DNA of 64,000 bases from Hadesarchaea archaeon. GTDB lineage: Archaea; Hadarchaeota; Hadarchaeia; Hadarchaeales; Hadarchaeaceae. Positions 5,098 through 61,557 of the stretch are shown here, piece after piece. Made by a program: the position numbers and the translations under genes. Numbering within the stretch: position 1 is the first letter of the stretch; the number at the start of each line of letters is the position of its first letter. The DNA lies in NCBI GenBank assembly GCA_029259175.1, contig JAPDJH010000009.1:57610-121609 (forward strand). Direction: 5' to 3'. Under the pieces are notes generated by a model, which saw only the letters and a program-made list of their open reading frames with translations, was not told the DNA's origin and did not search any database.

Positions 5098-5592
5098 ATG
5101 AACAAATCGAATGCTGACCAACGCGTGCTCCTCTACGATCCACAGCGTTGTACCGGTTGTCGTTGCTGCGAGATGGCGTGTGCCTATCAGAACTTCGGCT
5201 CGCTCACGCCAATAAAAAGCCACATCCGGATAATCGCGAGCGAGGATGGAATCCACCGCGATGCCGTGTACTGCTGGCACTGCGAGGAACCGGTGTGTGC
5301 CGCGGCATGTCCGGTGGATGCGATAGAAAAGGACGAGCGCACGGGCTGGGTGCGGGTGAATCCGCTTAAATGCATCGGCTGTCGATCGTGCACATATGCA
5401 TGTCCTGTGGCTGCCGCATGGTTCGATGAAGATCGGCGGACGGCTGCGAAGTGCACCTTCTGTGACGGGGATCCGCTCTGTGCCCGTTTCTGCTCGCCAC
5501 AAGCCATACGAGTCGCCACCCGAGCGGAGGCCTCAGCCGCGCTCAAACAAATTCTCGGAGGTGCCGCGAGTGGAGGCGGAACGAGTCCTTAA
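5098..5592 (+). CDS. Four-cluster [4Fe-4S] protein (DmsB/HydN/CooF-like)
   Basis: CTGCRCCEMAC, CWHCEEPVCAAACP, CIGCRSCTYACP, KCTFCDGDPLCARFC. Confidence 0.9.
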   Translation: MNKSNADQRVLLYDPQRCTGCRCCEMACAYQNFGSLTPIKSHIRIIASEDGIHRDAVYCWHCEEPVCAAACPVDAIEKDERTGWVRVNPLKCIGCRSCTYACPVAAAWFDEDRRTAAKCTFCDGDPLCARFCSPQAIRVATRAEASAALKQILGGAASGGGTSP

Positions 5593-6214
5593 AGCTGCTG
5601 GAGCAATCCAGGTGGTAAAAAAACGTGATCGAAAAGTGGAAGCCGCGATCAGGCCCGACCGTATACGGACGGTTGCAAGCAAGTTGTGTTCCCATGGCGC
5701 ACGTTTCATCATCATTGCCGCGGCGGATTCGGGGCTCGATATCGACTTGATCTATCACTTTGATTTGGATGGGCTAGTAGTTGCTGTAAAAACGAGAGTG
5801 CCTAAAGAGTCCCCAGAAATCGACTCAATAAAGGATATAGTGCCCGGAGCTGAATGGGCTGAGCGCGAAGCTTCAGATCTCTGCGGTGTACGCTTCCGCG
5901 GGGGCACAAACGAGCCATTGGTTCTTCCCAAAGAGGGTGCTCTGGAGACTCCTCCTCTCACGCGAGCGTTTCGGGTGCTGCCAGCCGAGGTGGCCCCCGT
6001 GGCGGAGTCCATTGCGAGCGTTGGGGCAACAGCCCCGCTGACTTCGCTTATGGAGCGCCGACGCCAAGAGGCAGGACTCGAGGCCAAAGCACCCATGGTC
6101 TACGCCACCGAAAAGGGGACTAAGGAATTGACAGAACTGATCAAGCAAGCCAGCTTCACCGAGCGCGGAGGGTTCGATCCCGAGCGTAAAAAGTTGAGAG
6201 GTGTGTACAAGTGA
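5570..6214 (+). CDS. NuoC/EchD-like hydrogenase subunit with HdrC-like C-terminal extension
   Basis: GTG at 5570 after GGAGGTG RBS; D..LIYHF, IDSI..I.PGAEWAEREASDLCGVRFRG = NuoC family; extra ~70-aa tail. Confidence 0.8.
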   Translation: MEAERVLKAAGAIQVVKKRDRKVEAAIRPDRIRTVASKLCSHGARFIIIAAADSGLDIDLIYHFDLDGLVVAVKTRVPKESPEIDSIKDIVPGAEWAEREASDLCGVRFRGGTNEPLVLPKEGALETPPLTRAFRVLPAEVAPVAESIASVGATAPLTSLMERRRQEAGLEAKAPMVYATEKGTKELTELIKQASFTERGGFDPERKKLRGVYK

Positions 6215-7080
6215 AGGAGTACGCTGTCTACTGGGGCTGCATGATTCCTCATCGTCTGCCCTCGATAGAAATCGCGGCCAGATATGTGCTCGAAAAGCTT
6301 GGTGTTCGGGTGCGCGAGGTTGAAAACTACACTTGTTGCCCGGATCCGATCATTGGGCGATTTATCGATAGAAAAACTGCCCTGACACTTTCTGCACGCA
6401 ATCTAGCACTGGCCGAAGAACTGGGTCCAGAACTTCTAGTTCTCTGTAATGGGTGCTTCGAGACACTGATCGAAGCCGTAGAGGCTCTGCACGATGAAAA
6501 CACGCGCACTGAAATTAACCAAATCCTAGAAAAAGTTGGCAGGAAATACCAAGGAGCTATACAAGTCCGCCACGTGGTAGAAGTGCTGCACGACGATGTT
6601 GGGCTAAACCGGATAAAAGAGGTCGTTCAGAAGCCATCGAGGGTCAAGCTCGCCGTCCACTACGGATGTCACCTTTTCCGCGAACCCAATGGTGGGGACA
6701 TCTGGAGGAAACCAAAACAATTCGAAGAGCTCCTGCGTGTGATCGGAGGCAATCCAGTACTGTGTGACCACAACAGGCTGTGCTGCGGTTTTCCGACGTC
6801 ACATGTGGATCCGGAGTATTCGTTGCGCATGAATCTGTTGCCTAAGATGCGGTGCTACAAACAACTAAAAATAGAAGCTGTGGTTACTGTGTGTCCAGCA
6901 TGCACCATTCAGATGGAAACTGGACAGCGCATGCTCCGCAAGTTTGGCTTGGAGACCTCCGTTCCGATAGTTCACTTGATGGAGCTCATGGCACTTGCTT
7001 TTGGAATGAGGCCCCAAGAGCTTTCGCTCAAGGTTCACCGCAGCCCCGTCGAGGATTTTGCTAGGAGGGTGTTCGGATGA
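6211..7080 (+). CDS. hdrB: Heterodisulfide reductase subunit B-like (two CCG domains)
   Basis: YWGC, TCCPDP, SARNLALAE, LCNGC, HYGCHL, LCCG, VCPAC. Confidence 0.9.
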   Translation: MKEYAVYWGCMIPHRLPSIEIAARYVLEKLGVRVREVENYTCCPDPIIGRFIDRKTALTLSARNLALAEELGPELLVLCNGCFETLIEAVEALHDENTRTEINQILEKVGRKYQGAIQVRHVVEVLHDDVGLNRIKEVVQKPSRVKLAVHYGCHLFREPNGGDIWRKPKQFEELLRVIGGNPVLCDHNRLCCGFPTSHVDPEYSLRMNLLPKMRCYKQLKIEAVVTVCPACTIQMETGQRMLRKFGLETSVPIVHLMELMALAFGMRPQELSLKVHRSPVEDFARRVFG

Positions 7081-8210
7081 GCGAAATCGCGCGCTACGGT
7101 CCATATCATCCCATCCACCTTGAGCCGGAGGTCTACGAGGTTCATGTTCGCGAAGGCAGGATTTCGGATGTACGTATCGAGCAGGGCTTCACTCACCGGG
7201 GGATTGAGCGCCTTCTAGAGCAGCAGTCAGTGAAGCACGGGGTTCTCTTGGCAGAACGGGTCTGCGGATTGTGCTCTCAGGCCCATGCGGAGGCCTACTG
7301 CACTGCGGTGGAAAACACGCTCAAAATCGAGCCGCCGGAGCGTGCGGCACATATTCGAACGCTTGCTTTCGAGCTCGATCGAATCCATAGCCACCTCATG
7401 TGGTTCGTGCTTTTGTTTCACTCCGTGCGCGACACTGAGGCATTAACCGTGGTGCTGAACCGGCGAGAACGGCTGATGGATCTAATCGAATCGCTGTTCG
7501 GGAATCGGGTTCACTTCTCCATCAACACTCCGGGTGGGGTAAAACGTGACTTGCCCGCAGATGCGGATCAGCTTGTGCGCCGAACGATGGAGCACGTGCG
7601 CAATCTCGCAGATTTCGTGAAAAACAAGGTAGAAGCGCACTCGCAACGACTGAGTGGAATCGGTGTATTGCCAAAAGAGAAAGCTAGAGCTTACGGGGTT
7701 GTAGGACCTGTGCTCCGCGGGTCGGGGATCGCCAGCGACATAAGGCGGGACGATCCGTATCTGATCTATGACGAATTGGAGTTTGACATCCCGACGGAGG
7801 ACTCCTGTGACGTACTGGGACGAACGCGTGTGCGGGTTGCCGAGCTCTACGAGTCCATCCGGATAGTTGAGCAGACCGTGAAAAGAATGCCGGTAGGCGA
7901 ACTCTCGGTGGAGTTCCCATTCCCGTTGACCAATGAGGACTGCGGGCGAGTGGAGGCTCCCCGTGGAGAGCTCATCTACTTCGCGCGGCTGAGGGGGACC
8001 AGCTTTCCGGATCGTGTGAAGCTCAGACCGCCCACCTATGTCAACGACCCAGCCGTCGCCGAGATGCTCAAAGGAGAACCACTTGAAAATCTGCCGCTAG
8101 TCCTCGAGAGCATCGACCGCTGCATTTCATGCACTAATCGCGTGACAGTAATTGATGAACAAAACGGGCATGTCAAAAAAATCTCGCTGGAGGATCTGGT
8201 GCGATGGTAG
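7077..8210 (+). CDS. Group 4 [NiFe]-hydrogenase large subunit
   Basis: GPYHP, GFTHRGIE, L1 RVCGLCSQAH, EAPRGE, L2 DRCISCTNR followed by a cleavable-type C-terminal extension. Confidence 0.9.
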   Translation: MSEIARYGPYHPIHLEPEVYEVHVREGRISDVRIEQGFTHRGIERLLEQQSVKHGVLLAERVCGLCSQAHAEAYCTAVENTLKIEPPERAAHIRTLAFELDRIHSHLMWFVLLFHSVRDTEALTVVLNRRERLMDLIESLFGNRVHFSINTPGGVKRDLPADADQLVRRTMEHVRNLADFVKNKVEAHSQRLSGIGVLPKEKARAYGVVGPVLRGSGIASDIRRDDPYLIYDELEFDIPTEDSCDVLGRTRVRVAELYESIRIVEQTVKRMPVGELSVEFPFPLTNEDCGRVEAPRGELIYFARLRGTSFPDRVKLRPPTYVNDPAVAEMLKGEPLENLPLVLESIDRCISCTNRVTVIDEQNGHVKKISLEDLVRW

Positions 8211-9061
8211 ATGAGCTCCGAGTATATCGGTTCAACGCGGGGTCGTGCAACGGTTGTGATATTGAGGTCGTCAGTGCTCTAGCGGAGCACTACGGTCTTC
8301 AAAACGTCCGGGTGGTAGAAGAGGTGGAAGAGGCAAACACCATGGTAGTTGTGGGTGTCGTAACGACGAAGACCGAGTCCCATCTGAGAGCAGCTTATGA
8401 AAAACTCCAAGATCCCAAGCTCGTTATTGCCGTGGGGACGTGTGCCGTTTCGAGTGGAGTGTTCGATGGCTCCTACAGTGTCCGGAATCCGCCTGAGACA
8501 TACATCCCAGTGAGAGCATATCTAAACGGGTGCCCCCCTAGCCCTCACTCGATCGTCTCAGCTCTCCGCGCCCTTATGGCCCGCCAAGACTCCGAGTGGA
8601 CAGCGCCCAAGGGCTACAGGGGATTGCCGGTGGTCGATGCCGAGAAATGCACCGCGTGCGGAGCTTGCGCTATCGCCTGTCCCGCTAGCGCTATCGAAAT
8701 CGAAGAAGCCGACGAAGGCAAAATCGTGCGCTACTTGCACGATCGCTGCATCAGTTGTGCCACCTGCGAGCTCGTGTGTCCGGAGGACGCGGTGAGGCTG
8801 AAGGAAGAGCGTCATCCGCTGGTGGCGGAACGAGAAAAAGCTAGGGTGGAAACGAAGTTCACAACGGTGCAGTGCCCGGTGTGTGGTAGTGGGCACATAA
8901 CGGAACGGCATCTGGACGTGATTGTTGAACGGCTGAAAGAAAAAGAGGCGCTGAAAGCCGCTGCTCAGGAACTGCGCGAGCGATCGAAGCTCGAGAGGAC
9001 TTGCAAGATAAGGCAGTTGGCTGTGGGCAAGCAATTGCTTTTTAAGCTCGGCTATGGATAA
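8204..9061 (+). CDS. Group 4 hydrogenase small subunit (NuoB-like) fused to 2x[4Fe-4S] NuoI-like domain
   Basis: GSCNGCDIE, GTCAVSSG, GCPP, then YRGLP..CTACGACAIACP, CISCATCELVCP. Confidence 0.9.
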   Translation: MVDELRVYRFNAGSCNGCDIEVVSALAEHYGLQNVRVVEEVEEANTMVVVGVVTTKTESHLRAAYEKLQDPKLVIAVGTCAVSSGVFDGSYSVRNPPETYIPVRAYLNGCPPSPHSIVSALRALMARQDSEWTAPKGYRGLPVVDAEKCTACGACAIACPASAIEIEEADEGKIVRYLHDRCISCATCELVCPEDAVRLKEERHPLVAEREKARVETKFTTVQCPVCGSGHITERHLDVIVERLKEKEALKAAAQELRERSKLERTCKIRQLAVGKQLLFKLGYG

Positions 9062-10122: not shown

Positions 10123-10262
10123 AAAACGTACGGGATGCTGACTCAAATTGCCTGAGGAGTCGATTGGCCACTGTACCATTTTTTTCAGATTTCGAAACGT
10201 CCGCAAACCACAGTCCCGTCAGCGATGGGGCTTAATACCGGGCGCTGCTTATCTTTTTCTGG

Positions 10263-10389
10263 GCCGGGGTAGCTCAGATGGTTAGAGCGCCAGACTCATA
10301 GCCTCGAAGCGCGGCTGTGAGTGCTGATCCCGCGAGATGATGGGTGAGAAATCTGGAGGTCGCGGGTTCGAGTCCCGCCCCCGGCACCA
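10263..10389 (+). tRNA. tRNA-Met(CAT), elongator type, with 50-nt intron (10301-10350) at 37/38; CCA encoded
   Basis: Acceptor GCCGGGG/CCCCGGC, anticodon stem CCAGA/TCTGG, TTCGAGT T-loop; BHB motif: CTCA(10295-98)/TGAG(10345-48) with TAG and AAA bulges. Confidence 0.95.
10301..10350 (+). ncRNA. Putative intron-encoded box C'/D' methylation guide targeting C34 of its own pre-tRNA
   Basis: GGCTGTGAGT (10313-22) complementary to ACTCATAGCC (10294-303, one G-U); CTGA at 10324-27; ATGATGG at 10337-43; the fifth nt upstream of CTGA pairs with C34. Confidence 0.65.
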
Positions 10390-12394: not shown

Positions 12395-12625
12395 TTACAA
12401 CTTCTCCAACAGCTCAAAGAACCTCTCTCGGGTAAGCTCCGCCTCCCGGATTATCGCCCGCACGAGCGCTGGCTTGATCTCCCTATCCGGATGGACCGGG
12501 ATAACGGTACGCACGTTCTCTTTCATCAGGATAACGTGGGGACCCTTCCTCCTAACAATTCGAAATCCTTCATGGATCAATATCTTGATGAGCTTCTCAG
12601 CTGGAACAGGCCCGATTTTAGGCAT
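12395..12625 (-). CDS. hicA: HicA-family toxin
   Basis: LIKIL...GF...RRKGPHVIL...VIPVH..EI....I. Confidence 0.9.
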   Translation of the reverse strand: MPKIGPVPAEKLIKILIHEGFRIVRRKGPHVILMKENVRTVIPVHPDREIKPALVRAIIREAELTRERFFELLEKL

Positions 12626-12872
12626 GAACCTCTACTTTTTGTAATCCAACAACTGACTGCGCCATTTTGAGAACTTCTGATTTCTCCTCTTCATCAAGGG
12701 TTTCCAAGTAGAGTTCGATTGCCTCCTCAACATTTTTCATCAACTCTTCGAGCGTTTCGCCTTGCGTGTGGCACCCTGGCAGGGAAGGAACAAACGCCAC
12801 GTAACCGCCCGTCTCATCCTTTTGAACCACTACATCGAACATCAATCTCTTGGCCATGTCTTTCCCAACCAC
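12618..12872 (-). CDS. hicB: HicB-family antitoxin (short)
   Basis: GGYVAFVPSLPGCHTQGETLEELMKNVEEAIELYLE. Confidence 0.92.
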   Translation of the reverse strand: MVGKDMAKRLMFDVVVQKDETGGYVAFVPSLPGCHTQGETLEELMKNVEEAIELYLETLDEEEKSEVLKMAQSVVGLQKVEVHA

Positions 12873-13047: not shown

Positions 13048-13596
13048 ATGAAACATCTAGACGAAAAGGCTTTGAAGGTGCTCACCTACTTCTTTGAGAA
13101 CCCGCGAGAAGAAGTTTACCTGCGGGAACTGGCACGCCGGCTACGGATGAGCCCAGCAACTGTTATGCGAGCCCTACGTCTCCTCATTAGAGAAGGCTTG
13201 ATAACCAAGCGCCCGGAGAAGCACGCCACCTATTTCAAGGCCAACCTTAACCCATACTTCAGAGAGTTGAAGAAAGCGCATACGGTTTCCAAAGTCTTGC
13301 GCTCCGGAATTCTTGAACTCATCAACGAGAAATCGGTAGGTCTAAGTTCAATACTGCTCTACGGGAGCGCCGCTAAAGGCGAAGACGATCGGGGAAGCGA
13401 CTACGACTTTCTGGTGATTGCCGCAAGATGCGCCCTGAGAAGCAGTGAACTCTCGAAACTTCTAGGGAGAGAGGCCACCCTACAGGTCTTCGACGTGGCG
13501 GGCTGGAAACGAGTAGCAAAGCGAAACCGAGCATTCTACCTAGACGTTATAAGCAATTCCATTGTCCTTTATGGTGGAAAGCCGGTGATCGATTGA
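13048..13596 (+). CDS. wHTH + minimal nucleotidyltransferase (MNT) antitoxin
   Basis: YLRELARRLRMSPATV HTH; LYGSAAKGEDDRGSDYDFLV. Confidence 0.88.
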   Translation: MKHLDEKALKVLTYFFENPREEVYLRELARRLRMSPATVMRALRLLIREGLITKRPEKHATYFKANLNPYFRELKKAHTVSKVLRSGILELINEKSVGLSSILLYGSAAKGEDDRGSDYDFLVIAARCALRSSELSKLLGREATLQVFDVAGWKRVAKRNRAFYLDVISNSIVLYGGKPVID

Positions 13597-14033
13597 CGCT
13601 TAGGGATTGTCTTGCGCAAAGGAAGTTGCGCAGGATACGGCCGGATCCGCTCAAAGCCCGCAAATCGCTGGAAGCTGCGTCTGCAAAACTGAAAAAGGCC
13701 AAGGAACTCCTCGCCGATGAGCATTACGATGCAACCCTTCTGTACGCGTACACGAGCATGTTCAGCTCGGGAAGAGCTCTCCTTTACAAGGACGGCATCC
13801 AAGAGAAATCCCACTACTGTTTGGCTAGGTATCTAGAGGAGAGGTACGTGAAGAGAGGAAAGTTGAATCCAAAGATCATCACCTTCCTCGACTCTTTCCG
13901 TGAGGAGCGGCACGCGATAATGTATGGGTTCGAGGAGGTTGAAATCCGGCGCGAAGAGGCTGAGGAAGCCATCTCGGTTGCGGAAGAATTCCTTGGGAGA
14001 GCTAAAGAACTCGTGGGTAAGCGTACGCGCTGA
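13593..14033 (+). CDS. HEPN-domain protein (toxin)
   Basis: AY.SMF...RALL, KSH, REERHAIMYG; overlaps the MNT stop codon. Confidence 0.85.
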   Translation: MTLRDCLAQRKLRRIRPDPLKARKSLEAASAKLKKAKELLADEHYDATLLYAYTSMFSSGRALLYKDGIQEKSHYCLARYLEERYVKRGKLNPKIITFLDSFREERHAIMYGFEEVEIRREEAEEAISVAEEFLGRAKELVGKRTR

Positions 14034-15448: not shown

Positions 15449-15700
15449 ATGAAAGGAAGCGTGGTAAAAATTACCTCAAAAGGACAACTTACCCTCCCCG
15501 TGGAAATCCGGAGAGAGTTAGGGGTTAGGAAAGACGATTATCTTTACGTCACAAGAGCTGGTGAGCTAATTCTGATGAAGCGGATCGGAGTGAATCCTAA
15601 GGAAATTTTAGATACCTTTCAGCAAGTCGCAAAGGAGAGCGGGCTGACGAGAAAAGAACTAAACCGGGTCATCCGCGAGATCAGGCGGGCAAAAGAATGA
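15449..15700 (+). CDS. AbrB/MazE/SpoVT-family antitoxin (VapB-like)
   Basis: VKITSKGQLTLPVEIRRELGV. Confidence 0.92.
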   Translation: MKGSVVKITSKGQLTLPVEIRRELGVRKDDYLYVTRAGELILMKRIGVNPKEILDTFQQVAKESGLTRKELNRVIREIRRAKE

Positions 15701-16119
15701 ATAAAAAGCCAAGAGTTTTCTTGGACACGAACGTTTTGATATCGGGAATGGTATTCAGAGGAAACGAGAGGAAACTGCTGGACGCGATTATTGATAACCG
15801 ATTGAAACTGGTAATAAGCGACGATGTTTTGAACGAAACAGAAATGGTCTTCAGGAAAAAATTCCCGCAGCACCGTGTTCTTTTCCCGTTATTTTTGCAG
15901 CTCGTGAAGCACGAAAGAATACCGAGAAAAGCGTATAGAAAAGCCGAAAAGACATATTCTGGACTCCTCCGTGACAAAACAGACGCCCACATCCTTGCGG
16001 CCGCTGTCGTGGGCAAGTGCGATTATCTAATTGCCGGCGACAAAGAACTCCTTTCCCTGAAGAAAGTTGGTCTCACAAAAATAATTCAAACGTGGGAGTT
16101 GCTGAGAGAATTGAAATAA
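15697..16119 (+). CDS. PIN-domain toxin (VapC-like)
   Basis: VFLDTNVLISG, E, DKTDAHILAAA, LIAGDKELL. Confidence 0.92.
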   Translation: MNKKPRVFLDTNVLISGMVFRGNERKLLDAIIDNRLKLVISDDVLNETEMVFRKKFPQHRVLFPLFLQLVKHERIPRKAYRKAEKTYSGLLRDKTDAHILAAAVVGKCDYLIAGDKELLSLKKVGLTKIIQTWELLRELK

Positions 16120-52063: not shown

Positions 52064-52140
52064 GCCGGGGTGGCAGAGCGGCTAATGCGGCGGACTGCAG
52101 ATCCGCTTTTTCGCCGGTTCAAATCCGGCCCCCGGCTCCA
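52064..52140 (+). tRNA. tRNA-Cys(GCA), CCA encoded
   Basis: GCCGGGG/CCCCGGC, GCGGA-CT-GCA-GA-TCCGC, GCCGG-TTCAAAT-CCGGC, U73. Confidence 0.95.
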
Positions 52141-52174: not shown

Positions 52175-52507
52175 CTATCCACCAAGCATCTTAGATATTT
52201 TCTCCTTCAGCTTAGGGACATCTTCTTTCACGATCTTCCAGACGTTTGCGTAGTCGACTCCGAAATACTTATGCACGAGTACGTTTCTAAGCCCAGCAAT
52301 GTGCTTCCATGGAACTTCACTGTGTCTGTCTTTTACGTGCTCCGGCACATTCTTTGCGGCCTCTCCGATGATTTCGAGGCTTCTCACAATTGCCCTTTTC
52401 AGCGTTTCGTCCTTCACGAAATCTTCGAAACTTTTTGCCTTCAATGCGTTTTCGATATATTCACATTCATCCAGCATGTGCTTCAAGAAGGGCTTGTAAT
52501 CCTTCAC
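52175..52507 (-). CDS. HEPN/DUF86 toxin (HepT-like)
   Basis: AIVRSLEIIGEAAK, PW..IAGLRNVLVH.YFGVD. Confidence 0.93.
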   Translation of the reverse strand: MKDYKPFLKHMLDECEYIENALKAKSFEDFVKDETLKRAIVRSLEIIGEAAKNVPEHVKDRHSEVPWKHIAGLRNVLVHKYFGVDYANVWKIVKEDVPKLKEKISKMLGG

Positions 52508-52821
52508 GCGAACACCACTTCCCGCTCCACGTAAGGCTTTATGTAAGGGCTTATCGCGCCGACCGAGACCAAGTCGACTTTTCTCCCCAGCTTCCGCTCG
52601 AGAAATTCCATCAAGTCGAAAAACTTGAGCCCTATGGGTTCGGAAAATTCGACGAGGATGTCCACATCGCTCTTTCCCGTCTGCTTCCCCCTGACGATCG
52701 ATCCGAAAACCCCTATCCTCGCGACCTTGTACTCCCGCGCCAAGATTGGCTCCAGTTCTTTCAAAGTTTTAATCACCGCCTCGAGCTCGGGATTTCGTTC
52801 CACCATTTCAAACACCCACAT
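52504..52821 (-). CDS. Minimal nucleotidyltransferase antitoxin (MntA-like)
   Basis: IGVFGSIVRG.Q...SDVDILVEF, LGRKVDLV; start may be ATG 52806. Confidence 0.93.
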   Translation of the reverse strand: MWVFEMVERNPELEAVIKTLKELEPILAREYKVARIGVFGSIVRGKQTGKSDVDILVEFSEPIGLKFFDLMEFLERKLGRKVDLVSVGAISPYIKPYVEREVVFA

Positions 52822-52899
52822 TCAGTTGGAGCCGCCCGTTATTAATTGTTCAAGATTGGGATTTCTCGTTGGTTCGCTCTGCGATTCTGCTTTTCCCCG

Positions 52900-52917
52900 A
52901 ATCCGGCCCCGGCTCCA
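52900..52917 (+). repeat. Direct repeat of tRNA-Cys 3' end (attR-like)
   Basis: AATCCGGCCCCGGCTCCA vs tRNA AATCCGGCCCCCGGCTCCA (1-nt deletion). Confidence 0.9.
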
Positions 52918-53031
52918 AACACGCTGGTTTCATTTTCCTTTCTTGAAGCCACAATGTTCCGATTTAACAAATTCAGCTTAAAATGGTCTCAGAACAAAAG
53001 TTTCACGTATGGGGTGAGAAATGGGAGAGAA

Positions 53032-53706
53032 TTGGAACTAATTCTCTGGACAATTTTCATAGCAGGAGTGTTGAAAGCCTACCTGCTACCAGCGATAGCG
53101 TTGGTAACAGGAATAGGGTTCATTCACATTCCCGACTGGATAAGCACGCCGGGGATAGGACACGCGATGACCGTCTGTATGGGCATCCTTCCGCTGGTTG
53201 GGATCATAGATTTCTATTCTCGCGGCGGGCGGCTGGAGAGAAGAAAACCGAAGAAGATCCACCTGCTCTTCTTGGTTCTGATGTTTCTTGGAGCCTTGCT
53301 TGCCCCTCTAGAAAGGATTCTGGTAAGGGGCGATGAAGTTTCCCAAGTGCTTTGGACTCTTTCAGACACGCTGCCTTCCGGAATCGCTTTCGGATTGCTC
53401 GTCCCCTTTTATAAACTCGAGAAGGAGAAAAGGCTATTATCCTTTCTGTTCTTCTTTGCGCTCACCTACATTACTGTCCCCGCAGCAGCAACAGTTAAAA
53501 TCTTGAATCCTTCACTCTCCGGTTTTCCAACGTACGAAACGCCCTTTTATCTGGACGCTTGGTTCTGGAGTGACATGATCGTCAACATAGGGGTGGGCGT
53601 CTTCTTGATTTGGAGTATTTTAAATGAGCATCTCCTTAGGAAGAGGACAACCACAAGGGTTCGCCGAGCGGGTGTTGCAGGGTTCGGTAAAGGGCGGAGA
53701 ACTTAG
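53032..53706 (+). CDS. Multi-TM hypothetical membrane protein
   Basis: About 6 hydrophobic segments; C-terminal WFWSD motif shared with 55417-56079; start uncertain (TTG 53032). Confidence 0.65.
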   Translation: MELILWTIFIAGVLKAYLLPAIALVTGIGFIHIPDWISTPGIGHAMTVCMGILPLVGIIDFYSRGGRLERRKPKKIHLLFLVLMFLGALLAPLERILVRGDEVSQVLWTLSDTLPSGIAFGLLVPFYKLEKEKRLLSFLFFFALTYITVPAAATVKILNPSLSGFPTYETPFYLDAWFWSDMIVNIGVGVFLIWSILNEHLLRKRTTTRVRRAGVAGFGKGRRT

Positions 53707-53719
53707 GAGAGGTGCAGAA

Positions 53720-55387
53720 ATGAATCCCGCGCACCAAAGGCTCGTCATGGGTCTCTCGGGCTTCGTGGCTTTTGCCTTGCTAGTACCAGCATGCTTTCAA
53801 GTGGTCGCGTTCTACGCGCTCTCCGAAAACTGCCGATACGACTTTAGTGGCCCACACGACTTCTGGATGGATCCGACGTGGACGGTTGCGAGCGAGAACG
53901 GGAACCCAGTACTCAGAGGAGAAAATGAGGGATTCGCATTTTTTCCAAAGGAAACTCCAAAGGAAAATAAGCGGACGAAAGACCTCCTGCCCACCCCCAC
54001 CGAGCTTGCCGGGCTAGAAGTAAGGATAGAACTCGAGAGAGGATTCACCTGCGTTTCGTGGGTGGGCAGAAACCAAAAGCTCTCCTTAGTTCTTCATCCA
54101 GCCGCGCTGGAGGTGGAGCGGTGGTCTGGCGATGAACTCGTCGAGTGGCACTCCTACCCCGCAGATTTTTCGCTCGGTCGGTGGCACAGCTTGCAGTTGT
54201 CAGTCCGAGACTTGGATTTCTACATAAAACTAGATGACAACCAAACAATAGAGGTAGAAAACGCGTTTTGGGCCCGAAAGGTGAGTTTCGAGGCGTGCCC
54301 CTCCGATGTGGGCACGGTGGTCTTGATAGACAACTTCGAGGTCTGCTTCCATAAGCCCCCGGTTGTTCAATCTCTCCTTGCGGATCTCGCGATCGTCGGG
54401 CGGATGCTTGCCTATATGGGACTTTTCCTCCTGTTAATCTTTGGACTGTTCAAAATCAAGCCAAGATATGGCTTCTGGGCCGCTCTCGCTCTGATCACTG
54501 CCCTGCTCTCCGAGCGCCCGACGCTTTTCTTCAGCAGGCCACTGGATTTGGGCTTTATCCTCGGATACCTCTTCTACTTCTTCTACAGCTTCATAACATA
54601 CGACTTGGTTTGGAGCAGCAACAGAACTGACCTAGGAACTCTTCTGCTCGTCGGAGCTCTCGTAGGGTGTTTCCTAAGCTTCGGCAGGTGGGGCGTGTCG
54701 CCGGGTTTGGTTGCGAGATTCTCCGTTGTCTCGATTACTCTTCCGTTGGTTATGCTCGACTCTTTTACCCCGAATCCCGAAGTGAGGGTTCCTCCCTGGG
54801 CCAACACCTTGCTCGGAGGCCGGCGGTGGCGGTGGACTCTAGCGCTCATTATGCTCGCACTCTTGTACTCGGCATATTGTGCGATAGGTCTGATCGTTTC
54901 TGACCTCTGCTTTCACCTCTCGTTGGTTGTCATGGCCGGAGAACTCATCCTAGTCTATCTGCTGGCCCTGCTCATCATTTCGAAAGGCATGAGCCTGAGG
55001 GAGTTCCTGCCCACTAGGCGTGAGCGAAAAGTCCTCTTCTCGGCTCTAGGAGTGGCTTATCTTTTTTCATCGGCATACCTGTTGCGCACGTCACTGACCG
55101 CATCTGCCTCGCCCTCTGAACTCATGCTCATGAATTTCGGCCCCTTTGTGCTCATGTTTTCCTTGCTACTCGCGTGCACGCGCTCGAGGTTAAGAAAACG
55201 AGTCCGTATGCGCGAAAGACTGAAGCCTCGCTCGCTGCTGGTCTGGCTTCCCTTGCTACTGCTGTTTGCCTCCCTTGTATCGCTCGTTCCTCCCTTGGTG
55301 GTGCTCGTCCCAATCGAGATGTTTTTGGTACAGGTGGGAGGCATCGGGCTAATAGCATGGCTGCTGCTAGACACGCGAAGGCTGTGA
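53720..55387 (+). CDS. Membrane protein with extracellular lectin/DUF1080-like domain and ~12 TM
   Basis: ATG after GAGGTG; YDFS...W...G.WH.L.L.V...IDNFEV beta-sandwich pattern, then hydrophobic region. Confidence 0.6.
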   Translation: MNPAHQRLVMGLSGFVAFALLVPACFQVVAFYALSENCRYDFSGPHDFWMDPTWTVASENGNPVLRGENEGFAFFPKETPKENKRTKDLLPTPTELAGLEVRIELERGFTCVSWVGRNQKLSLVLHPAALEVERWSGDELVEWHSYPADFSLGRWHSLQLSVRDLDFYIKLDDNQTIEVENAFWARKVSFEACPSDVGTVVLIDNFEVCFHKPPVVQSLLADLAIVGRMLAYMGLFLLLIFGLFKIKPRYGFWAALALITALLSERPTLFFSRPLDLGFILGYLFYFFYSFITYDLVWSSNRTDLGTLLLVGALVGCFLSFGRWGVSPGLVARFSVVSITLPLVMLDSFTPNPEVRVPPWANTLLGGRRWRWTLALIMLALLYSAYCAIGLIVSDLCFHLSLVVMAGELILVYLLALLIISKGMSLREFLPTRRERKVLFSALGVAYLFSSAYLLRTSLTASASPSELMLMNFGPFVLMFSLLLACTRSRLRKRVRMRERLKPRSLLVWLPLLLLFASLVSLVPPLVVLVPIEMFLVQVGGIGLIAWLLLDTRRL

Positions 55388-55416
55388 GACGGTTGGATTT
55401 TAAAGTCGGGACAGGG

Positions 55417-56079
55417 ATGGTTCTAGAGAGAATGCGGGGACTCATCAACCGCCTGTTCGCCGCATCCTTCATCCTGATCATTTTGGCGTGGATGGTCCGG
55501 CAGGTTCAGTTTGCGGTTGAGCAAGGATGGGTCCCGCCTGTGCACCCCTCGCTCGTGGCGCTCGTGATGTACGGCACCTTCATGATTGGCTACTCGATCC
55601 TCGTCGTGGGGCTGCTGACTGAGCTGCGAAGACCGACGCTCAGTTTTGCGCTACACCGCAATTGGCGCTGGCTGGCGTGCGGCGCCTTCCTCCTCGGGAT
55701 TTTCGTCCTCATAAACACGGTCCAAGCCATCGAGATGCACGACAGGCCCGAGTTCCTCAAGCAGTGGGTGCTCGACAGCGTGTGCATGGAGTCCAGCTCC
55801 TTTTCCCTGCTGTTCGGCATTCTCTTCATGACCCGCTCGACCCCGCAGCGCTCGCCGGGCTATCGCCTGATGCTGCTGGGAGCCGCACTCTTCGTGCTGA
55901 TCAATCCCTTCCCGGCTTACATCACGAGCGCTCTCGGCTTCTATCTCGGAGGGCCCGAGGAGTACAAACACTTCTGGACCGAGACCGTCCCCACCCTGTG
56001 GTTCTGGTGGGACTTCCTGTCGGAGCTCGTGATCCTCGTTGGTGCGCTTTGGCTGTTGAGGAGAGGAAAGAAAGCCTAA
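55417..56079 (+). CDS. Multi-TM hypothetical membrane protein
   Basis: About 6 TM; EL.RPT...RN and WFWWD motifs. Confidence 0.7.
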   Translation: MVLERMRGLINRLFAASFILIILAWMVRQVQFAVEQGWVPPVHPSLVALVMYGTFMIGYSILVVGLLTELRRPTLSFALHRNWRWLACGAFLLGIFVLINTVQAIEMHDRPEFLKQWVLDSVCMESSSFSLLFGILFMTRSTPQRSPGYRLMLLGAALFVLINPFPAYITSALGFYLGGPEEYKHFWTETVPTLWFWWDFLSELVILVGALWLLRRGKKA

Positions 56080-56118
56080 CCCCCGATGGATTAACCGCCT
56101 TGTCAGCGAGAGGTGTTC

Positions 56119-56274
56119 TCAGCGCTTTTTCCTACGCGAACCCGCGGCCGTCGCGATCAGCCCGCCGATGAGCACTAAGACAATCCACAGCTGTTCTTCC
56201 GTAGCGGCGAACATCGCAATGCCCGCGAGCATTATCAGCAGGCCCACCGCCGCCACAACCGTTAGGGCTTTCAG
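56119..56274 (-). CDS. Small 2-TM protein, probable CTG start
   Basis: GGGGGTGA RBS then in-frame CTG AAA GCC; two hydrophobic segments, basic tail. Confidence 0.55.
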   Translation of the reverse strand: MKALTVVAAVGLLIMLAGIAMFAATEEQLWIVLVLIGGLIATAAGSRRKKR

Positions 56275-56372
56275 ACACTCACCCCCGTTCCTCCTGCGCT
56301 TCGGGAGGCTTAAACTTGGTGGTGGAAAACGCAAGAGACTAAAATCGCGTCTCGGAGTAGAAGAGGGGCTCG

Positions 56373-57152
56373 ATGAAGCGAGTGCTGGTGGCCATCCCCG
56401 CTATCGGAATCTTCGCGCTCGCGGGAGCGGCCGGGCTGATTTACTCAGCTGAGGATCCGCACTGGGGGCTGGGCCTCCAAGTCGTCAGCACGTTTGTTAC
56501 TCTTCTCCTGTGCTCCGCGTACTTTCTCGTGCCCCCAAAGCGTCGGCTCGGGTGGTACCGGACCCTGATGGCTTGGGCGGCCGTGCTGATGTTCAGCTAC
56601 GTGCTATCGACAGTAATTCCTGGAACCACGCCCTACGAGATGGGCACGAGAGACGTGGCAAAGGTTCTTCCATGGTTTTTGGTTCCGGTAGCACTCATCG
56701 TATTTCCCATCTGGCTTATCTTCACCTTGTTCTATCTGATGTTCGCGAGCGAGGCAATACGGCCCACCGCTGGTCTCGATTTGAACCGGAATAAGTTTCT
56801 TTATTCGCTTGCTGTGCTCGGAATTTTGTTCGGCTTTCTGAACGGTCTCCAAGTGTTTCCCGGGGAGTGGGGTCCTCTGGGTCTCAACGAGACTGCCATC
56901 TTGGGAATGGTCTACGGCTTCCTCCTGCTCCTGCGCCCGCCGCAGCGGCTCAACCTGCTGATCGCGATCGTAATGGGATTTTTCCTGCCCGTCTACGTGG
57001 TGGGACCGCCCGGGTTGAACACGGGTTTCCGGCCCGCCTTTCAGTTCCTCTGGGGTGAACCGCTCAACCTCGGGGCGCTCACCGACGTAATGATCACGCT
57101 GGCCTTCTTCCCGGCCTCTGTGTGGCTCCTCAGGCGCAGGAAAAGGCGATGA
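56373..57152 (+). CDS. Multi-TM membrane protein, paralog of the C-terminal half of 61554-63092
   Basis: WYR..W...IPG..PY, E..RP, G.LGLN.T.ILG, LGA.TD.M shared. Confidence 0.75.
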   Translation: MKRVLVAIPAIGIFALAGAAGLIYSAEDPHWGLGLQVVSTFVTLLLCSAYFLVPPKRRLGWYRTLMAWAAVLMFSYVLSTVIPGTTPYEMGTRDVAKVLPWFLVPVALIVFPIWLIFTLFYLMFASEAIRPTAGLDLNRNKFLYSLAVLGILFGFLNGLQVFPGEWGPLGLNETAILGMVYGFLLLLRPPQRLNLLIAIVMGFFLPVYVVGPPGLNTGFRPAFQFLWGEPLNLGALTDVMITLAFFPASVWLLRRRKRR

Positions 57153-57153
57153 G

Positions 57154-59307
57154 ATGAAAGGACTGGAAGGGAAGTATGCGGGATTGAGCATCTCCGGTGG
57201 ACTCCTGATTTTGTTCTTGCTGGTGGTTGTATGGTTGGTAGCATTTTTCCTCCTCAGGCGGCAGATGAGACGAAAAACCCTCCTGATCGCGCTCACCATT
57301 TTCTCTATAACTTTCCTCGGGGCGACGATCGGAGTGCTTTCAAATCCCCTGATCTCTGGCGTTGACGCCCCATACTACCCCTATGCAGTTCGCGAGTTTC
57401 TGCAGGGCAGGCCGCTTCCCGAACCTTACCAGCCGGTGGCTTTTTACACGGCTGCGGCGTTTTCAGTTCTGACCAACGACCTCACGCTTGGGACGAAAAT
57501 CGCTCAGGCTCTATTTTTCCCACTGATGGTGTTGTCGGCTTTTATCCTGATACACTATCTGACAAAAAATGACCGGATTTCGCTCATAGTGACAGCCGTG
57601 TATGCACTCATGAGTTGTGCTTTGTCGGCCAAAGTGGGAATCCTCAAAAACATGGCCGCGATGGCGCTGATGCCTCTCTTCTATCTCTTCTTCATCAAGT
57701 TCATCCGGGGGGAGGGAAAGACACTCGATTTCAAGGTCTTGCGTTTGAACCAGAACTTTATTCTCTCGATTGTGCTCTTCGGCCTTTTGGCGGCAAGTCA
57801 CTTTCTGACCACCGGCTTCGTATTCATAACGGTCGTGGCCCACGTGATGTTTCAGTTGGGATACCATCGAACACTTCCACTTCGGGAGTTGAAGTTCTTG
57901 GGAATCCTCGTTTTGCTCATCTTGGCTGGGATGACTTCGGCTTCTCTCAGAGAGAAAGTCATCGGTACCACGAACGCTTTTGCTGAGAGCCAGCCGGTGC
58001 CGGACAGCCTCTTTCCTTTCACTCTTACAGGAGTGGGGGTTCCCGGAACCGCTTTTCTCCCCTTCATTCTCGTTGGCTTCATTGGGTTTTTCTTGGTACT
58101 CGCGCGCCGTGATAGATCAGTTTATCCGCTGGCCGTTGCCTTGCTCGCAGGGATGGTGTGCGCCCAGCCATGGGTGATAGATCCTGAGTATTCCTTCAGA
58201 TTTGGGGTTCTTACAATGACTGTGATCGTTCCTCTTGTCGCTTTTGGGGCCACTATCATAGCTGGAAGACACAGGAAGCTCTCGATGGGACTCGTCGGTA
58301 CACTGGCTGCTTTTGCAATAGGGATGTTTATAGGACTCGGGCTCATCGCCGGAGCAGTAGGACCGGGATTCCTTTCCGTGGAGAAATGGGAGTTCTCGGC
58401 CGGGCTCAGAGAGCAGCTCCCGAAGAACTGTGTTCTCGTGGCTGGGCACTCGGAGTACTTCTTTGACTTTGAGTACTGGGACGACCTGATTCTCGGCCGG
58501 AATGTCGAGCACCTGTGTTCTGAGGATGAGGCTCCTCTACCGCTGGAAGAGGCGGCAAAGAGGTTGATAGATAAACAGTATGATTTTCAACAAAGATGTT
58601 TGCTTTTAATTCCAATAGAGGTTGTCGAAAATGAAAATTTGGATAAATTTGGTTTGGAGAACACGGGGATTCAGAACTCAAAAACGGCGGTTTTGGAGCT
58701 GAAGAGTTCCATCGCCGCTTTAACGGATCTGGGCGATGAGATACCCATCGACTCCGCGGTGCTGGTGGCATTGCCCGAGCTCGAAAATGAGGAGTGGGCG
58801 TATCAATCGCTGAGAAATCGCGAAGTCGAGCTGGGGAGTCCGATTCCTTGGGAAAACTTGTCAGATGAGCTGGAAATGCGCGAGAACGAGAGAGGAAAGC
58901 TGTGCTTATACCTAACGGAAGCTTGGCGGGCGGAGAACTTGGATGCGGACAACCTCGGGATCGAAGCGGTGGCGGCGAACGAGCTTTATGTCGTTTTCCG
59001 CTTGGAGAACACTCAATATTGGGAAAGCGCTGAGTGGGAAAACCTTCCCATCTGGCCCACCCATGAGGAACCGCGGCGGCTCACGGCTGAAGTCAGGGTC
59101 AACCCAAACCCGCTCTTCGCTTTCATTCTTCTTCCGATCGAACTCTCACAGGTGCTCTACGGGACGCCTGCATATGGGGTCGTGAAGCTCCTGGTAGCAG
59201 TGCCGCTCACGGTCGGGCTGATCGGGCTGCTGCTCCGGCTCTGCGCTGACGGGTGGACACGGTTCTCGAGGAAGACCTCGGGGCGAAAAAGAAAAGGAAA
59301 ACTGTGA
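57154..59307 (+). CDS. GT-C-like multi-TM protein, paralog of 37365-40034
   Basis: GVDAPYY, KN....LMPL, SH.L..G, AQPWV..EY..RF, LLPI....VPLTV. Confidence 0.65.
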   Translation: MKGLEGKYAGLSISGGLLILFLLVVVWLVAFFLLRRQMRRKTLLIALTIFSITFLGATIGVLSNPLISGVDAPYYPYAVREFLQGRPLPEPYQPVAFYTAAAFSVLTNDLTLGTKIAQALFFPLMVLSAFILIHYLTKNDRISLIVTAVYALMSCALSAKVGILKNMAAMALMPLFYLFFIKFIRGEGKTLDFKVLRLNQNFILSIVLFGLLAASHFLTTGFVFITVVAHVMFQLGYHRTLPLRELKFLGILVLLILAGMTSASLREKVIGTTNAFAESQPVPDSLFPFTLTGVGVPGTAFLPFILVGFIGFFLVLARRDRSVYPLAVALLAGMVCAQPWVIDPEYSFRFGVLTMTVIVPLVAFGATIIAGRHRKLSMGLVGTLAAFAIGMFIGLGLIAGAVGPGFLSVEKWEFSAGLREQLPKNCVLVAGHSEYFFDFEYWDDLILGRNVEHLCSEDEAPLPLEEAAKRLIDKQYDFQQRCLLLIPIEVVENENLDKFGLENTGIQNSKTAVLELKSSIAALTDLGDEIPIDSAVLVALPELENEEWAYQSLRNREVELGSPIPWENLSDELEMRENERGKLCLYLTEAWRAENLDADNLGIEAVAANELYVVFRLENTQYWESAEWENLPIWPTHEEPRRLTAEVRVNPNPLFAFILLPIELSQVLYGTPAYGVVKLLVAVPLTVGLIGLLLRLCADGWTRFSRKTSGRKRKGKL

Positions 59308-59484
59308 GCGAATCCAGTTTGCTGGGGCGGGAAGAGATTCTGGGTTGCCCCGATGCTTCCGGTTGTTTTGGCGGCTGGCAACCCCTGTACGAGGATTCTC
59401 TTCTGAGTCTGTCGTGCAAGCTTGTTTTCTGCCTGTGAGGTTTCAACTCTGCAGATTTTATAGAGCGTACGCCGACATTATTTC

Positions 59485-61557
59485 GTGAAAGTCCACGCTG
59501 CTACGCTAACCGTTACGCTCTTGGTGTTCACGCTACCGGTTTGTGCCGCCGAGGATCTGGTGGTCGGGAGCGGGGACACGCTGGTCATAGAGAACGAGAC
59601 GCGCGTGATCGAGGGCAGCATCATCTTGGAACAGGATTCCACCCTGATCATCAGGGACTCGGACATCACGGTCAACAGCCACTACAAGAACCAGTACTGG
59701 GTGCGGGTGGGGTCGGGCGCAACCCTGCTCGTCGAGGGCTCGGTGCTACGCGAGGGCCCCGTCCCGAACTTGCCCGTGCTCGGGTCGTTCGGCGGGATCG
59801 AAAACTTCAGGTTCGGCGAGACAGTCATCGAGCCGGAGGAGGGTGCGCAGGTCGTCCTCAGGAACTCCACTTCAGAACTGCGCATAGGGCCGGGGGAGGG
59901 GAGTTCGGTGGTGCTGGAGTCCTCGTACCTTTCGATCCTCTTCTGGAGGTCGCTCCCCTCGGTGAGCACCACGGTGGAGAACTCGGGCATTCAGATGATA
60001 CACATCTGGCTGAACGGAGAGAACGGGGAAAACGTGGAGCTCGTTGGGCTCCGCGGCGGGGAAGAGCTGGATCTCGATCTCTCGGTTGAGGGGGCGAGTC
60101 TAGCGGTCGAGAACTCTTGGGTGGGAAGGTACTCGGTAGCCCTCTGGATGGGCTATCCGAATGCCGATTGTAGAAAACATGTGGTGATCAAGGATTCGGA
60201 GCTGAGCGAAATCTTTGCCGTTTTTCCAAAGGGCTCCGAAGTCAGGCTCTGGGGGATAGGCCCCGGCTTCTTCGAGAACTGGAACATGCACGACAACATG
60301 GAGGAAAATGGTGTTCCGTGGAGCTTGTGCTTGGAAAACGTTTCGCTGGAGAAATGGAAGCTTGATTTCCACGGGACGGCGGAGATCGAGGACTCGCGCT
60401 TTCATTTGGACACGTGGGACCGGGCTGAGGTCACGGTGAGGCGCTCGACCATCGTCTCCAATCACCACACGCGCGGAGGGCACATCAGGTTCATAGACTC
60501 CGTCGTTTCCGATCGGGAGGACCATCCCACCGGGGTCCGCCTTCTTTACCAACCGTTCACGGAAAACTACGATCCTGTCTACGTGTATGAGTTCGAGAAT
60601 TCTGCGCTTGGCCCCTATGCCGAGTTCGAGTTTACGGATGACAACATTGCGTGCGAGTTCCGCGGAGAGCTCGAGATGCTGGTTCCGCCGGAGCTCATCC
60701 ACTGGTTCGGAGGAACGGTCGGGCGGGAGTTCCCGATCGCGGTTGTGGATGCAAACGGGAAGCCGGTAGCGGGTGCGAAGCTCGAACTCTGCACACAGAA
60801 CAATCAGCTGGTCTGGGAGGGAGAGACGGGCGAGGACGGGAGCACGTCTGTGACCTTGGTGTTCGGAAAGGACAACTATGAGCAGAAGTTCGAGCTGAAG
60901 TGCTGGTTTGAAAATGAGGAACTTCAGACGACGCTCAGTTTCTTCAGCTCCACTCCAATCATCTTGGCGTCAGAGGGCGTCCTAGAGAAGGAGAGTATTA
61001 AGCTGTGGGAGATCACGGCCGCGTTGAGACCAACTATGATTATCCTACCTTTAGTTGCTTTTTTACTTGCTTTGCGTGCTCAACGTAGAAGGAAGCGACC
61101 AGTAGATGTTTTTGGATCATTTCCGGTTTGGATTATGACTACAACATGCTGGTACGCTCCCATTTACGATACGGTAATAGGCCCATTAACTGGTTTGGGA
61201 ATTATGTTTCCGGGCACCTTTGCTCTCTTCATATACCCTCTTGTTACCGTTTTACTAGTAGCATTTTTCTACGGTACAGGATATCTTTGGAAGACAGGAC
61301 AACGAGCGTTAGCGGTGGCATCAGTGATCGCTCTAAATCTATATGTTTCGTTTATTTCTGATTATTCGGCAAACACAACGCTTGACTGGATGGTTCGCCA
61401 CCTCGTGATTGGTTCTGTGTGCTTTCCTCTTCTGTTTCTCGGGGTCATGTGGGCCACTAAGAACTGGAGACGAAGAATCGTGTTGATCCTTTCACTCGTC
61501 GGGATCTTGGTGGTTGGAAACTGTATTTCAGGAGCGGCTTTTGGCAAGGGGGTGTGA
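59485..61557 (+). CDS. Secreted beta-rich domain + carboxypeptidase-regulatory-like domain + C-terminal 6-TM module
   Basis: Signal peptide; VVDANGKPVAGA...G.T..DG; TM module duplicated in the next gene. Confidence 0.7.
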   Translation: MKVHAATLTVTLLVFTLPVCAAEDLVVGSGDTLVIENETRVIEGSIILEQDSTLIIRDSDITVNSHYKNQYWVRVGSGATLLVEGSVLREGPVPNLPVLGSFGGIENFRFGETVIEPEEGAQVVLRNSTSELRIGPGEGSSVVLESSYLSILFWRSLPSVSTTVENSGIQMIHIWLNGENGENVELVGLRGGEELDLDLSVEGASLAVENSWVGRYSVALWMGYPNADCRKHVVIKDSELSEIFAVFPKGSEVRLWGIGPGFFENWNMHDNMEENGVPWSLCLENVSLEKWKLDFHGTAEIEDSRFHLDTWDRAEVTVRRSTIVSNHHTRGGHIRFIDSVVSDREDHPTGVRLLYQPFTENYDPVYVYEFENSALGPYAEFEFTDDNIACEFRGELEMLVPPELIHWFGGTVGREFPIAVVDANGKPVAGAKLELCTQNNQLVWEGETGEDGSTSVTLVFGKDNYEQKFELKCWFENEELQTTLSFFSSTPIILASEGVLEKESIKLWEITAALRPTMIILPLVAFLLALRAQRRRKRPVDVFGSFPVWIMTTTCWYAPIYDTVIGPLTGLGIMFPGTFALFIYPLVTVLLVAFFYGTGYLWKTGQRALAVASVIALNLYVSFISDYSANTTLDWMVRHLVIGSVCFPLLFLGVMWATKNWRRRIVLILSLVGILVVGNCISGAAFGKGV

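Follow-up and report, generated by a model that had tools for sequence, protein, structure and literature searches.

The 50-nt intron of a tRNA-Met gene, found in the 64-kb window (the whole stretch of DNA analysed, 64,000 nucleotides), probably serves as a one-motif C/D guide of the C'/D' type that would direct methylation of the gene's own wobble C34 to Cm34, in competition with the fold used for splicing. Guides within tRNA introns have so far been treated as a peculiarity of tRNA-Trp, and a survey placed the Cm34 guide for tRNA-Met in a separate gene (PMC2584109).

The tRNA-Met gene and its surroundings

The Rfam tRNA model (RF00005) reports a tRNA at 10263-10386 with a score of 63.4 bits, the anticodon CAU and an insertion of about 50 nt after position 37; ARAGORN, as run in this analysis, missed the intron-containing gene at 10263-10389. 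Counts of tRNAs based on ARAGORN alone would run too low for genomes with such intron-containing tRNAs. By its acceptor stem, GCCGGGG, the gene falls in the elongator-type class of the sampled loci, and not in the class with GGGCCC, which is probably tRNA-Ile(CAU); from this acceptor-stem class we infer that the isotype is elongator Met. The features of the gene and its intron, all on the plus strand, are these:

10232..10237: TTAATA, a candidate TATA-like element about 26-31 nt 5' of the tRNA start (by eye)
10263..10389: elongator-type tRNA-Met(CAU) gene with CCA encoded (Rfam RF00005 and sequence read-back)
10263-10300: 5' exon (sequence read-back)
10290-94/10352-56: anticodon stem CCAGA/UCUGG with the loop CUCAUA; C34 is 10297
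10294..10303: target strand ACUCAUAGCC, A31 to A37 plus the first three intron bases (pair table)
10301..10350: 50-nt intron at the canonical 37/38 site (insertion in the Rfam alignment; BHB-constrained fold)
10304..10312: connector between target and guide, 9 nt, a hairpin loop if pairing is in cis (sequence and fold)
10310..10314: CGCGG, pairing with CCGCG 10330-34 in the splicing fold (BHB-constrained fold)
10313..10322: putative guide GGCUGUGAGU, spacer positions 11 to 2 upstream of D' (pair table)
10323: unpaired spacer base G (sequence read-back)
10324..10327: box D'-type CUGA, one base 3' of the guide (sequence read-back)
10328..10336: K-loop spacer UCCCGCGAG, with a 2-bp mini-stem (U28-A35, C29-G34) before the bulge GAU (stem test)
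10337..10343: box C'-like AUGAUGG, nine bases 3' of CUGA (sequence read-back)
10345..10348: UGAG, the 3' strand of the BHB central helix and rival of the guide for CUCA (constrained fold)
10351-10386: 3' exon (sequence read-back)
10387-89: encoded CCA (sequence read-back)

Judged from its sequence, the neighbourhood of this gene is ordinary archaeal chromosome. The window encodes hydrogenase-type subunits, a PLP enzyme, an MFS transporter, triosephosphate isomerase, PCNA, primase, L44e and eIF2-alpha, and the triosephosphate isomerase is 66-71% identical to proteins of Hadarchaeota MAGs and up to 81% identical to others. At 5396-9061 lies a hydrogenase/complex-I-like module comprising a 30-kDa subunit, a CCG-domain protein, a 49-kDa/NiFe large subunit and a 20-kDa subunit fused to 4Fe-4S domains. 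Towards the end of the window, just after a tRNA-Cys (52064-52140), nine consecutive plus-strand ORFs of 94-717 aa occupy 52390-63089 without a Pfam match at E up to 1e-5; this block could be integrated or lineage-specific. [quoted passage not shown]

12618-12869, minus strand: HicB-like antitoxin (domain scan)
13048-13596: protein with HTH and nucleotidyltransferase, followed by a HEPN protein at 13593-14030
15449-15697 and 15697-16116: MazE-like/PIN pair

Guide duplex, kink motif and splicing fold

A pair table made by script joins the guide (10313-22) to the target (10294-303) through ten of ten possible pairs, with a single G-U at U36. Pairing takes in every spacer position from 2 to 11 upstream of CUGA and stops at mismatches at positions 1 and 12, with C34 facing position 5. 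Crystal structures of active C/D RNPs likewise have a duplex capped at 10 bp, formed by nucleotides 2-11 of a 12-nt spacer, with spacer nucleotides 1 and 12 unpaired with the substrate (PMC9670817); in the extent of its duplex, and in its target lying at the fifth base upstream of D', the intron corresponds to a canonical C/D sRNA. The initial annotation had described this complementarity across the exon-intron junction with its one G-U, the CUGA one nucleotide later, the AUGAUGG at K-loop spacing and the fall of the N+5 rule on the wobble base, and all of these were borne out, the first by read-back and pair table together, the boxes by read-back of 10324-27 and 10337-43, and the last by the pairing of position 5 with 10297. 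Of the ten target bases in the duplex, seven belong to the exon and would be found in any tRNA with the loop ACUCAUA. When the whole pre-tRNA is folded, the MFE structure holds the guide helix and not the BHB (z = -2.7); the intron folded alone has no significant structure (z = 0.62).

The likelihood of such an arrangement arising by chance was estimated from 200,000 mononucleotide and 200,000 dinucleotide shuffles of the first 42 intron bases, the BHB strand being held fixed. Helices through C34 that reached 10 bp or more turned up in 735 of the mononucleotide and 1,145 of the dinucleotide shuffles (0.4-0.6%), and ones of 9 bp or more accompanied by CUGA at the offset in 2/200,000 and 28/200,000, respectively. 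In the 64-kb window, both strands taken together, the target can pair over at least 8 bp through C34 with 81 sites; among the best 25 of these 81, ranked by length, NUGA stands at the offset in the intron's own site only, and no other, separate free guide against the same target was found in the window. The motif UGAGUNNUGA occurs three times in the window, against 1.7 expected.

The bases on either side of the K-loop spacer have the makings of a kink. Numbering them by the last two digits of their window positions, and applying the box C/D rule by eye, G39-A27 and A40-G26 are possible tandem sheared pairs, followed by U41-U25 and G42-C24. At the level of sequence, the intron therefore has the internal D'/C' pair, able to form a K-turn or K-loop, of a canonical C/D sRNA. 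It lacks the terminal elements of that class, box C RUGAUGA and box D CUGA: no box C was seen by eye 5' of the guide, and the intron offers no usable terminal C/D pair. Nor is the architecture bipartite, with two motifs and two spacers of about 12 nt, as the intron has one motif and one guide. A regular expression for the full C-D'-C'-D layout had no match in the 64-kb window, and the Rfam C/D families had none in the window's tRNA region at E up to 10. Only G 10344 stands between box C' and the BHB strand. Two possible partners for a second kink were rejected by eye: neither UCGA 10304-07 nor GUGA 10344-47 has a proper stem beside the G-A pairs, and the latter clashes with the BHB helix.

The same intron is an archaeal BHB intron, with a 4-bp central helix and two 3-nt bulges at the splice sites. 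In the constrained fold, CUCA 10295-98 pairs with UGAG 10345-48 at all four central positions, and the bulges are UAG 10299-301 and AAA 10349-51. As the guide helix and the BHB both use CUCA 10295-98, they are mutually exclusive; furthermore, the CGCGG/CCGCG pairing of the splicing fold shares 2 nt with the guide and also involves the K-loop spacer. The BHB-constrained fold also pairs AUGAUGG with the intron 5' end (CCUCG with UGA-U-GG), meaning the motif is sequestered in the splicing fold, and the needs of splicing could partly explain its presence. The initial annotation had read these exclusive pairings as a fold switch. The exclusion itself stands, but the energetic argument for a switch is unspecific: the gap between the MFE and BHB-constrained folds is 6.4 kcal/mol in the window and 0-7 kcal/mol in 29 other introns, such that this measure does not single out the four introns sharing the design from the controls, and it was set aside as a sign of switching.

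Comparison with other tRNA-Met introns

Genome contigs were scanned with a broad exon-only tRNA pattern, yielding at least 121 loci, an arbitrary mix of which about half are bacterial. Approximately 59 of the at least 121 loci listed are archaeal by title, and none among the matches listed is titled Hadarchaeota. An intron at 37/38 was parsed in 29 of the archaeal loci listed, 27 by script and two (L024 and L091) by hand, with L030 (incomplete) and L081 (insertion elsewhere) left out. Setting aside the five with the GGGCCC acceptor stem leaves 24 elongator-type introns to be compared. Intronic pairs were counted by script, since the MAFFT alignments A1 and A2 misplaced the intron starts.

In 25 of these 29 listed loci the longest intron helix that includes C34 is of 3-6 bp, representing the BHB strand or short chance helices. 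Internal helices of 9-10 bp through C34 are present in the other four (L024, L044, L107 and L111). L111 was rejected, as its 9-bp helix has CCAG at the offset and no D' box. The layout of the window intron is consequently shared by 3/24 listed elongator-type introns, from an Aenigmatarchaeota (L024), a Micrarchaeota (L107) and another archaeal locus (L044), and the guide with its D' box is absent from the remaining 21. At the N+5 offset these three introns have AUGA, CUGA and UUGA in L024, L107 and L044, respectively, and the offset of C34 from NUGA is identical in all three and in the window (4/4 genomic cases). Rfam confirmed the tRNA identity of the loci sharing the layout. The motif UGAGUNNUGA was found in four of the at least 121 loci listed, namely in these three introns and in one bacterial flank.

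The duplexes of L024 and L107 cover exactly spacer positions 2-11, with 1 and 12 mismatched, as in the window; in L044 pairing is confined to positions 2-8 and a wobble at position 1. About 3 to 6 nt separate target and guide in these three introns, and pairing in cis would close loops of about 3 to 9 nt over the four genomic cases. The first three intron bases (i1 to i3) pair with spacer positions 9 to 11 (p9 to p11) as follows:

i1:p9: G-C in the window, A-U in L024, A-U in L107
i2:p10: C-G in the window, G-C in L024, G-C in L107
i3:p11: C-G in the window, U-G in L024, G-U in L107

These intronic pairs show compensatory change in L024 and L107 relative to the window; as L024 and L107 share two of the three pair states, the number of independent events is few. 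As to the alignment of tRNA-Met introns from related archaea, put forward in the initial annotation as a check on conservation, the comparison supports the guide reading by the layout in three distant archaea and the covariation in two of them, with no Hadarchaeota among the matches listed.

The kink was assessed by requiring a stem directly after D', a 3-nt bulge NAU and then GA, with 100,000 shuffles per intron. Stem length, bulge with the bases that follow it, and the number of shuffles reaching the observed stem were:

Window: 2 bp, GAU GAU, 5,534/100,000
L024: 7 bp, AAU GAU, 506/100,000
L107: 6 bp, UAU GAC, 191/100,000
L044: 4 bp, GAU GAU, 2,180/100,000

The motif in the window is the weakest of the four, and its final box C' base is G, not A. 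Its 2-bp stem is not significant alone, and from its sequence the motif is best called a K-loop. AUGAU stands at the matching place in L024 and L044, and AUGAC in L107; the U-U position (U41-U25 in the window) is kept in L024 and L044, and is C-U in L107.

The Thermococcaceae intron L062, a negative control, has no such guide, consistent with the literature. Searches by tblastn with the proteins neighbouring the window gene found no shared synteny at the listed loci, and exon identity likewise failed to single out relatives among them. An Rfam search of eight loci at E up to 0.1 matched no archaeal C/D family in the introns; the sole row of CD-box type, a weak match to Fungi_U3 lying on the other strand of L094, scored 20.8 bits (gathering threshold 95, E = 0.037).

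Several of the sampled tRNA-Met genes have peculiarities of their own. That at L024:182-339 (minus strand) has an extra insertion in the T-arm region, apparently a second intron. The archaeal genes at L094:144-336 and L111:149-339 have introns of 118 and 116 nt with similar starts and ends, and no D' box at the C34 offset. In the thaumarchaeotal L081, the 5' half closely resembles that of the window gene, with no 37/38 intron and a short insertion after the 3' strand of the anticodon stem.

Three other explanations have to be weighed against a self-directed guide. The hairpin and kink motif may be real, and bind L7Ae, yet serve as a folding or timing device rather than as a methylation guide, by masking the anticodon and the 5' splice site, by delaying or ordering splicing, or by protecting the excised intron. 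The mutual exclusion of the guide helix and the BHB would suit such a device, as would the significance of the kink-turn geometry in L024, L107 and L044, the poor fit of a lone motif to the two-motif rule for specific methylation (PMC1635284), and the stability of the tRNA-Met intron RNA of Nanoarchaeum equitans, reported without a predicted target (PMC3491384). However, a masking helix need not stop exactly at spacer positions 2 and 11, and has no need for C34 to lie five bases from NUGA, an offset kept in every genomic case; we consider this account unlikely. The second attributes the layout to chance acting within constraint: the BHB demands a UGAG-like complement to CUCA, a second copy of which could have come about by duplication, with CUGA and AUGAUGG incidental or serving the outer BHB helix. 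It draws on the frequency with which shuffles alone reach 10 bp through C34, on the pairing of AUGAUGG with the intron 5' end in the BHB-constrained fold, on the insignificant kink stem of the window, and on the three occurrences of UGAGUNNUGA there against 1.7 expected. Yet the frequency drops to 2-28/200,000 once CUGA is required at the offset, the layout recurs in three independent introns, all of them with kink-turn stems and two with compensatory pairs, and the N. equitans RNA has it too (PMC3491384); we consider coincidence unlikely as well.

The third explanation is that the excised intron guides modification of another substrate, either rRNA or another tRNA with a CAU anticodon, the match to its own junction being secondary. 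The excised N. equitans intron accumulates as free C/D sRNAs do (PMC3491384), and the exonic majority of the paired target bases would be met in any tRNA with the same loop. Nevertheless, the pairs at i1 to i3 change in step with the first bases of the intron itself, a sign that the unspliced precursor is the target. No rRNA lies in the window, and we judge a foreign substrate highly improbable.

A self-directed Cm34 guide and its relation to known systems

If the intron is a guide for its own C34, L7Ae would bind the D'/C' kink motif and recruit Nop5-fibrillarin, and the ribose of C34, opposite position 5, would be methylated to Cm34 on the unspliced precursor. The guide could pair in cis, closing a 9-nt hairpin loop, or with the target of a second molecule. 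The guide duplex would then open, CUCA would re-pair with UGAG 10345-48, and the endonuclease would cut. Because the duplex occupies the CUCA needed by the BHB, it would have to open before cutting, and methylation would hence come ahead of splicing, making this intron a test case for the ordering of the two steps. Once spliced out, the intron may survive as a small RNP that acts on further precursors, a possibility suggested by the abundance of the N. equitans intron. No fibrillarin, Nop5 or L7Ae domain was found among the 72 window ORFs scanned, so the methylation machinery is assumed rather than seen.

The main difficulty for this reading is the single motif, as a fully single-site RNP is reported to be active but non-specific (PMC1635284). 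The minimal single-motif guide proposed in the initial annotation is strengthened by the three introns of the same order and offset, with compensatory pairs in L024 and L107, and weakened by the reported requirement of two motifs for specificity (PMC1635284). One speculation is that specificity would be restored if two molecules paired reciprocally on a single Nop5 dimer. A broader and tentative proposal, to which we give a low probability, is that natural 'half' C/D guides exist across DPANN and a Hadarchaeota-like lineage, gaining their specificity as two precursor or intron molecules pair reciprocally, each guide holding the anticodon loop of its partner, and so rebuild the two-fold symmetric architecture of the Nop5 dimer. 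If true, these introns would be living examples of the half-unit that may have given rise to bipartite C/D RNAs, and the methylation and splicing of tRNA-Met would form a built-in two-state switch. A natural one-motif guide would also be a test case for whether the two-motif specificity rule is absolute.

Among known systems, the C/D guide in the intron of pre-tRNA-Trp was reportedly described by Clouet-d'Orval in 2001 and Singh in 2004, and the free Met guides, Haloferax sR-tMet and Pyrococcus sR49, are separate genes with two motifs. In the literature covered, no earlier mention was found of a tRNA-Met intron acting as the guide for Cm34 in its own tRNA. The survey describes the tRNA-Trp guide as always intronic, and the Cm34 guide of pre-tRNA-Met as a separate sRNA, 'always exonic' (outside the intron), in every surveyed genome (PMC2584109). 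Similarly, the introns mentioned as hosts of C/D sRNAs in two further papers are those of tRNA-Trp only (PMC3218864, PMC7994747). The initial annotation gave the tRNA-Trp intron guides and the separate Haloferax sRNA as background, but omitted the C/D-like RNA from the Met intron of N. equitans (PMC3491384).

The window intron resembles that of euryarchaeal tRNA-Trp in having its guide in an intron at 37/38, a duplex spanning the junction, position 34 as its target, and the necessity for methylation to come before splicing (PMC2584109, PMC7994747, PMC4090602). It is a BHB intron at that site pairing across the junction to position 34, as in the tRNA-Trp type, and differs in lacking the second guide, for position 39, and the combination of C/D and C'/D' motifs: the tRNA-Trp intron is about 100 nt long, with both motifs and guides for 34 and 39 (PMC2584109, PMC7994747, PMC4090602), whereas that of the window has one motif and one guide. 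With the free guides sR-tMet of Haloferax and sR49 of Pyrococcus it would share the target nucleotide and a duplex that uses intron bases of the precursor, although these are separate genes and the window guide lies inside the intron (PMC2584109). Cm34 of tRNA-Met is guided on the intron-containing precursor in Haloferax, as is predicted in Pyrococcus, and as this duplex takes in intron bases, methylation comes before splicing there as well (PMC2584109).

Two further likenesses concern architecture. Engineered single-site ('hemi') C/D RNPs, with one kink motif and one guide, assemble and methylate in vitro, but lose site specificity, for which two motifs are needed (PMC1635284); the window intron is a natural one-motif candidate, where the engineered RNP is reported as non-specific in its choice of site. 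The limitation of the duplex to 10 bp at spacer positions 2-11 is shared with the bipartite guides that are free of C/D (PMC9670817).

[quoted passage not shown] Its box D matches the consensus and its box C departs from it by one change; a hairpin of six G-C pairs is also present. The target is given as 'no prediction', and C34 goes unmentioned (PMC3491384). Read by eye, the printed intron starts with GC and has a guide ending UAUGAGC, one base, CUGA, CCC-GAAA-GGG and GAUGAU, and the fifth base upstream of CUGA is a G able to face C34. It thus shares with the window an elongator tRNA-Met host, the order of guide, one nucleotide, CUGA, short hairpin or loop and (N)AUGAU, and an intron beginning with GC that is matched by the 5' part of the guide. 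The two differ in length, 66 nt against 50 nt, and in what follows box C: the N. equitans RNA has the six-G-C hairpin there, which is absent from the 7 nt of the window intron, as from the 14 nt of L024 and L107. Accumulation has been shown for the N. equitans RNA, and the window intron is known from sequence alone. On this likeness, we place the window intron among the sparsely described tRNA-Met intron RNAs of the N. equitans type, of which it would be a shorter member than the published example. The layout is now seen outside Nanoarchaeota, and together with L024, L044 and L107, the window intron gives RNAs of this type a precise and testable target, their own C34.
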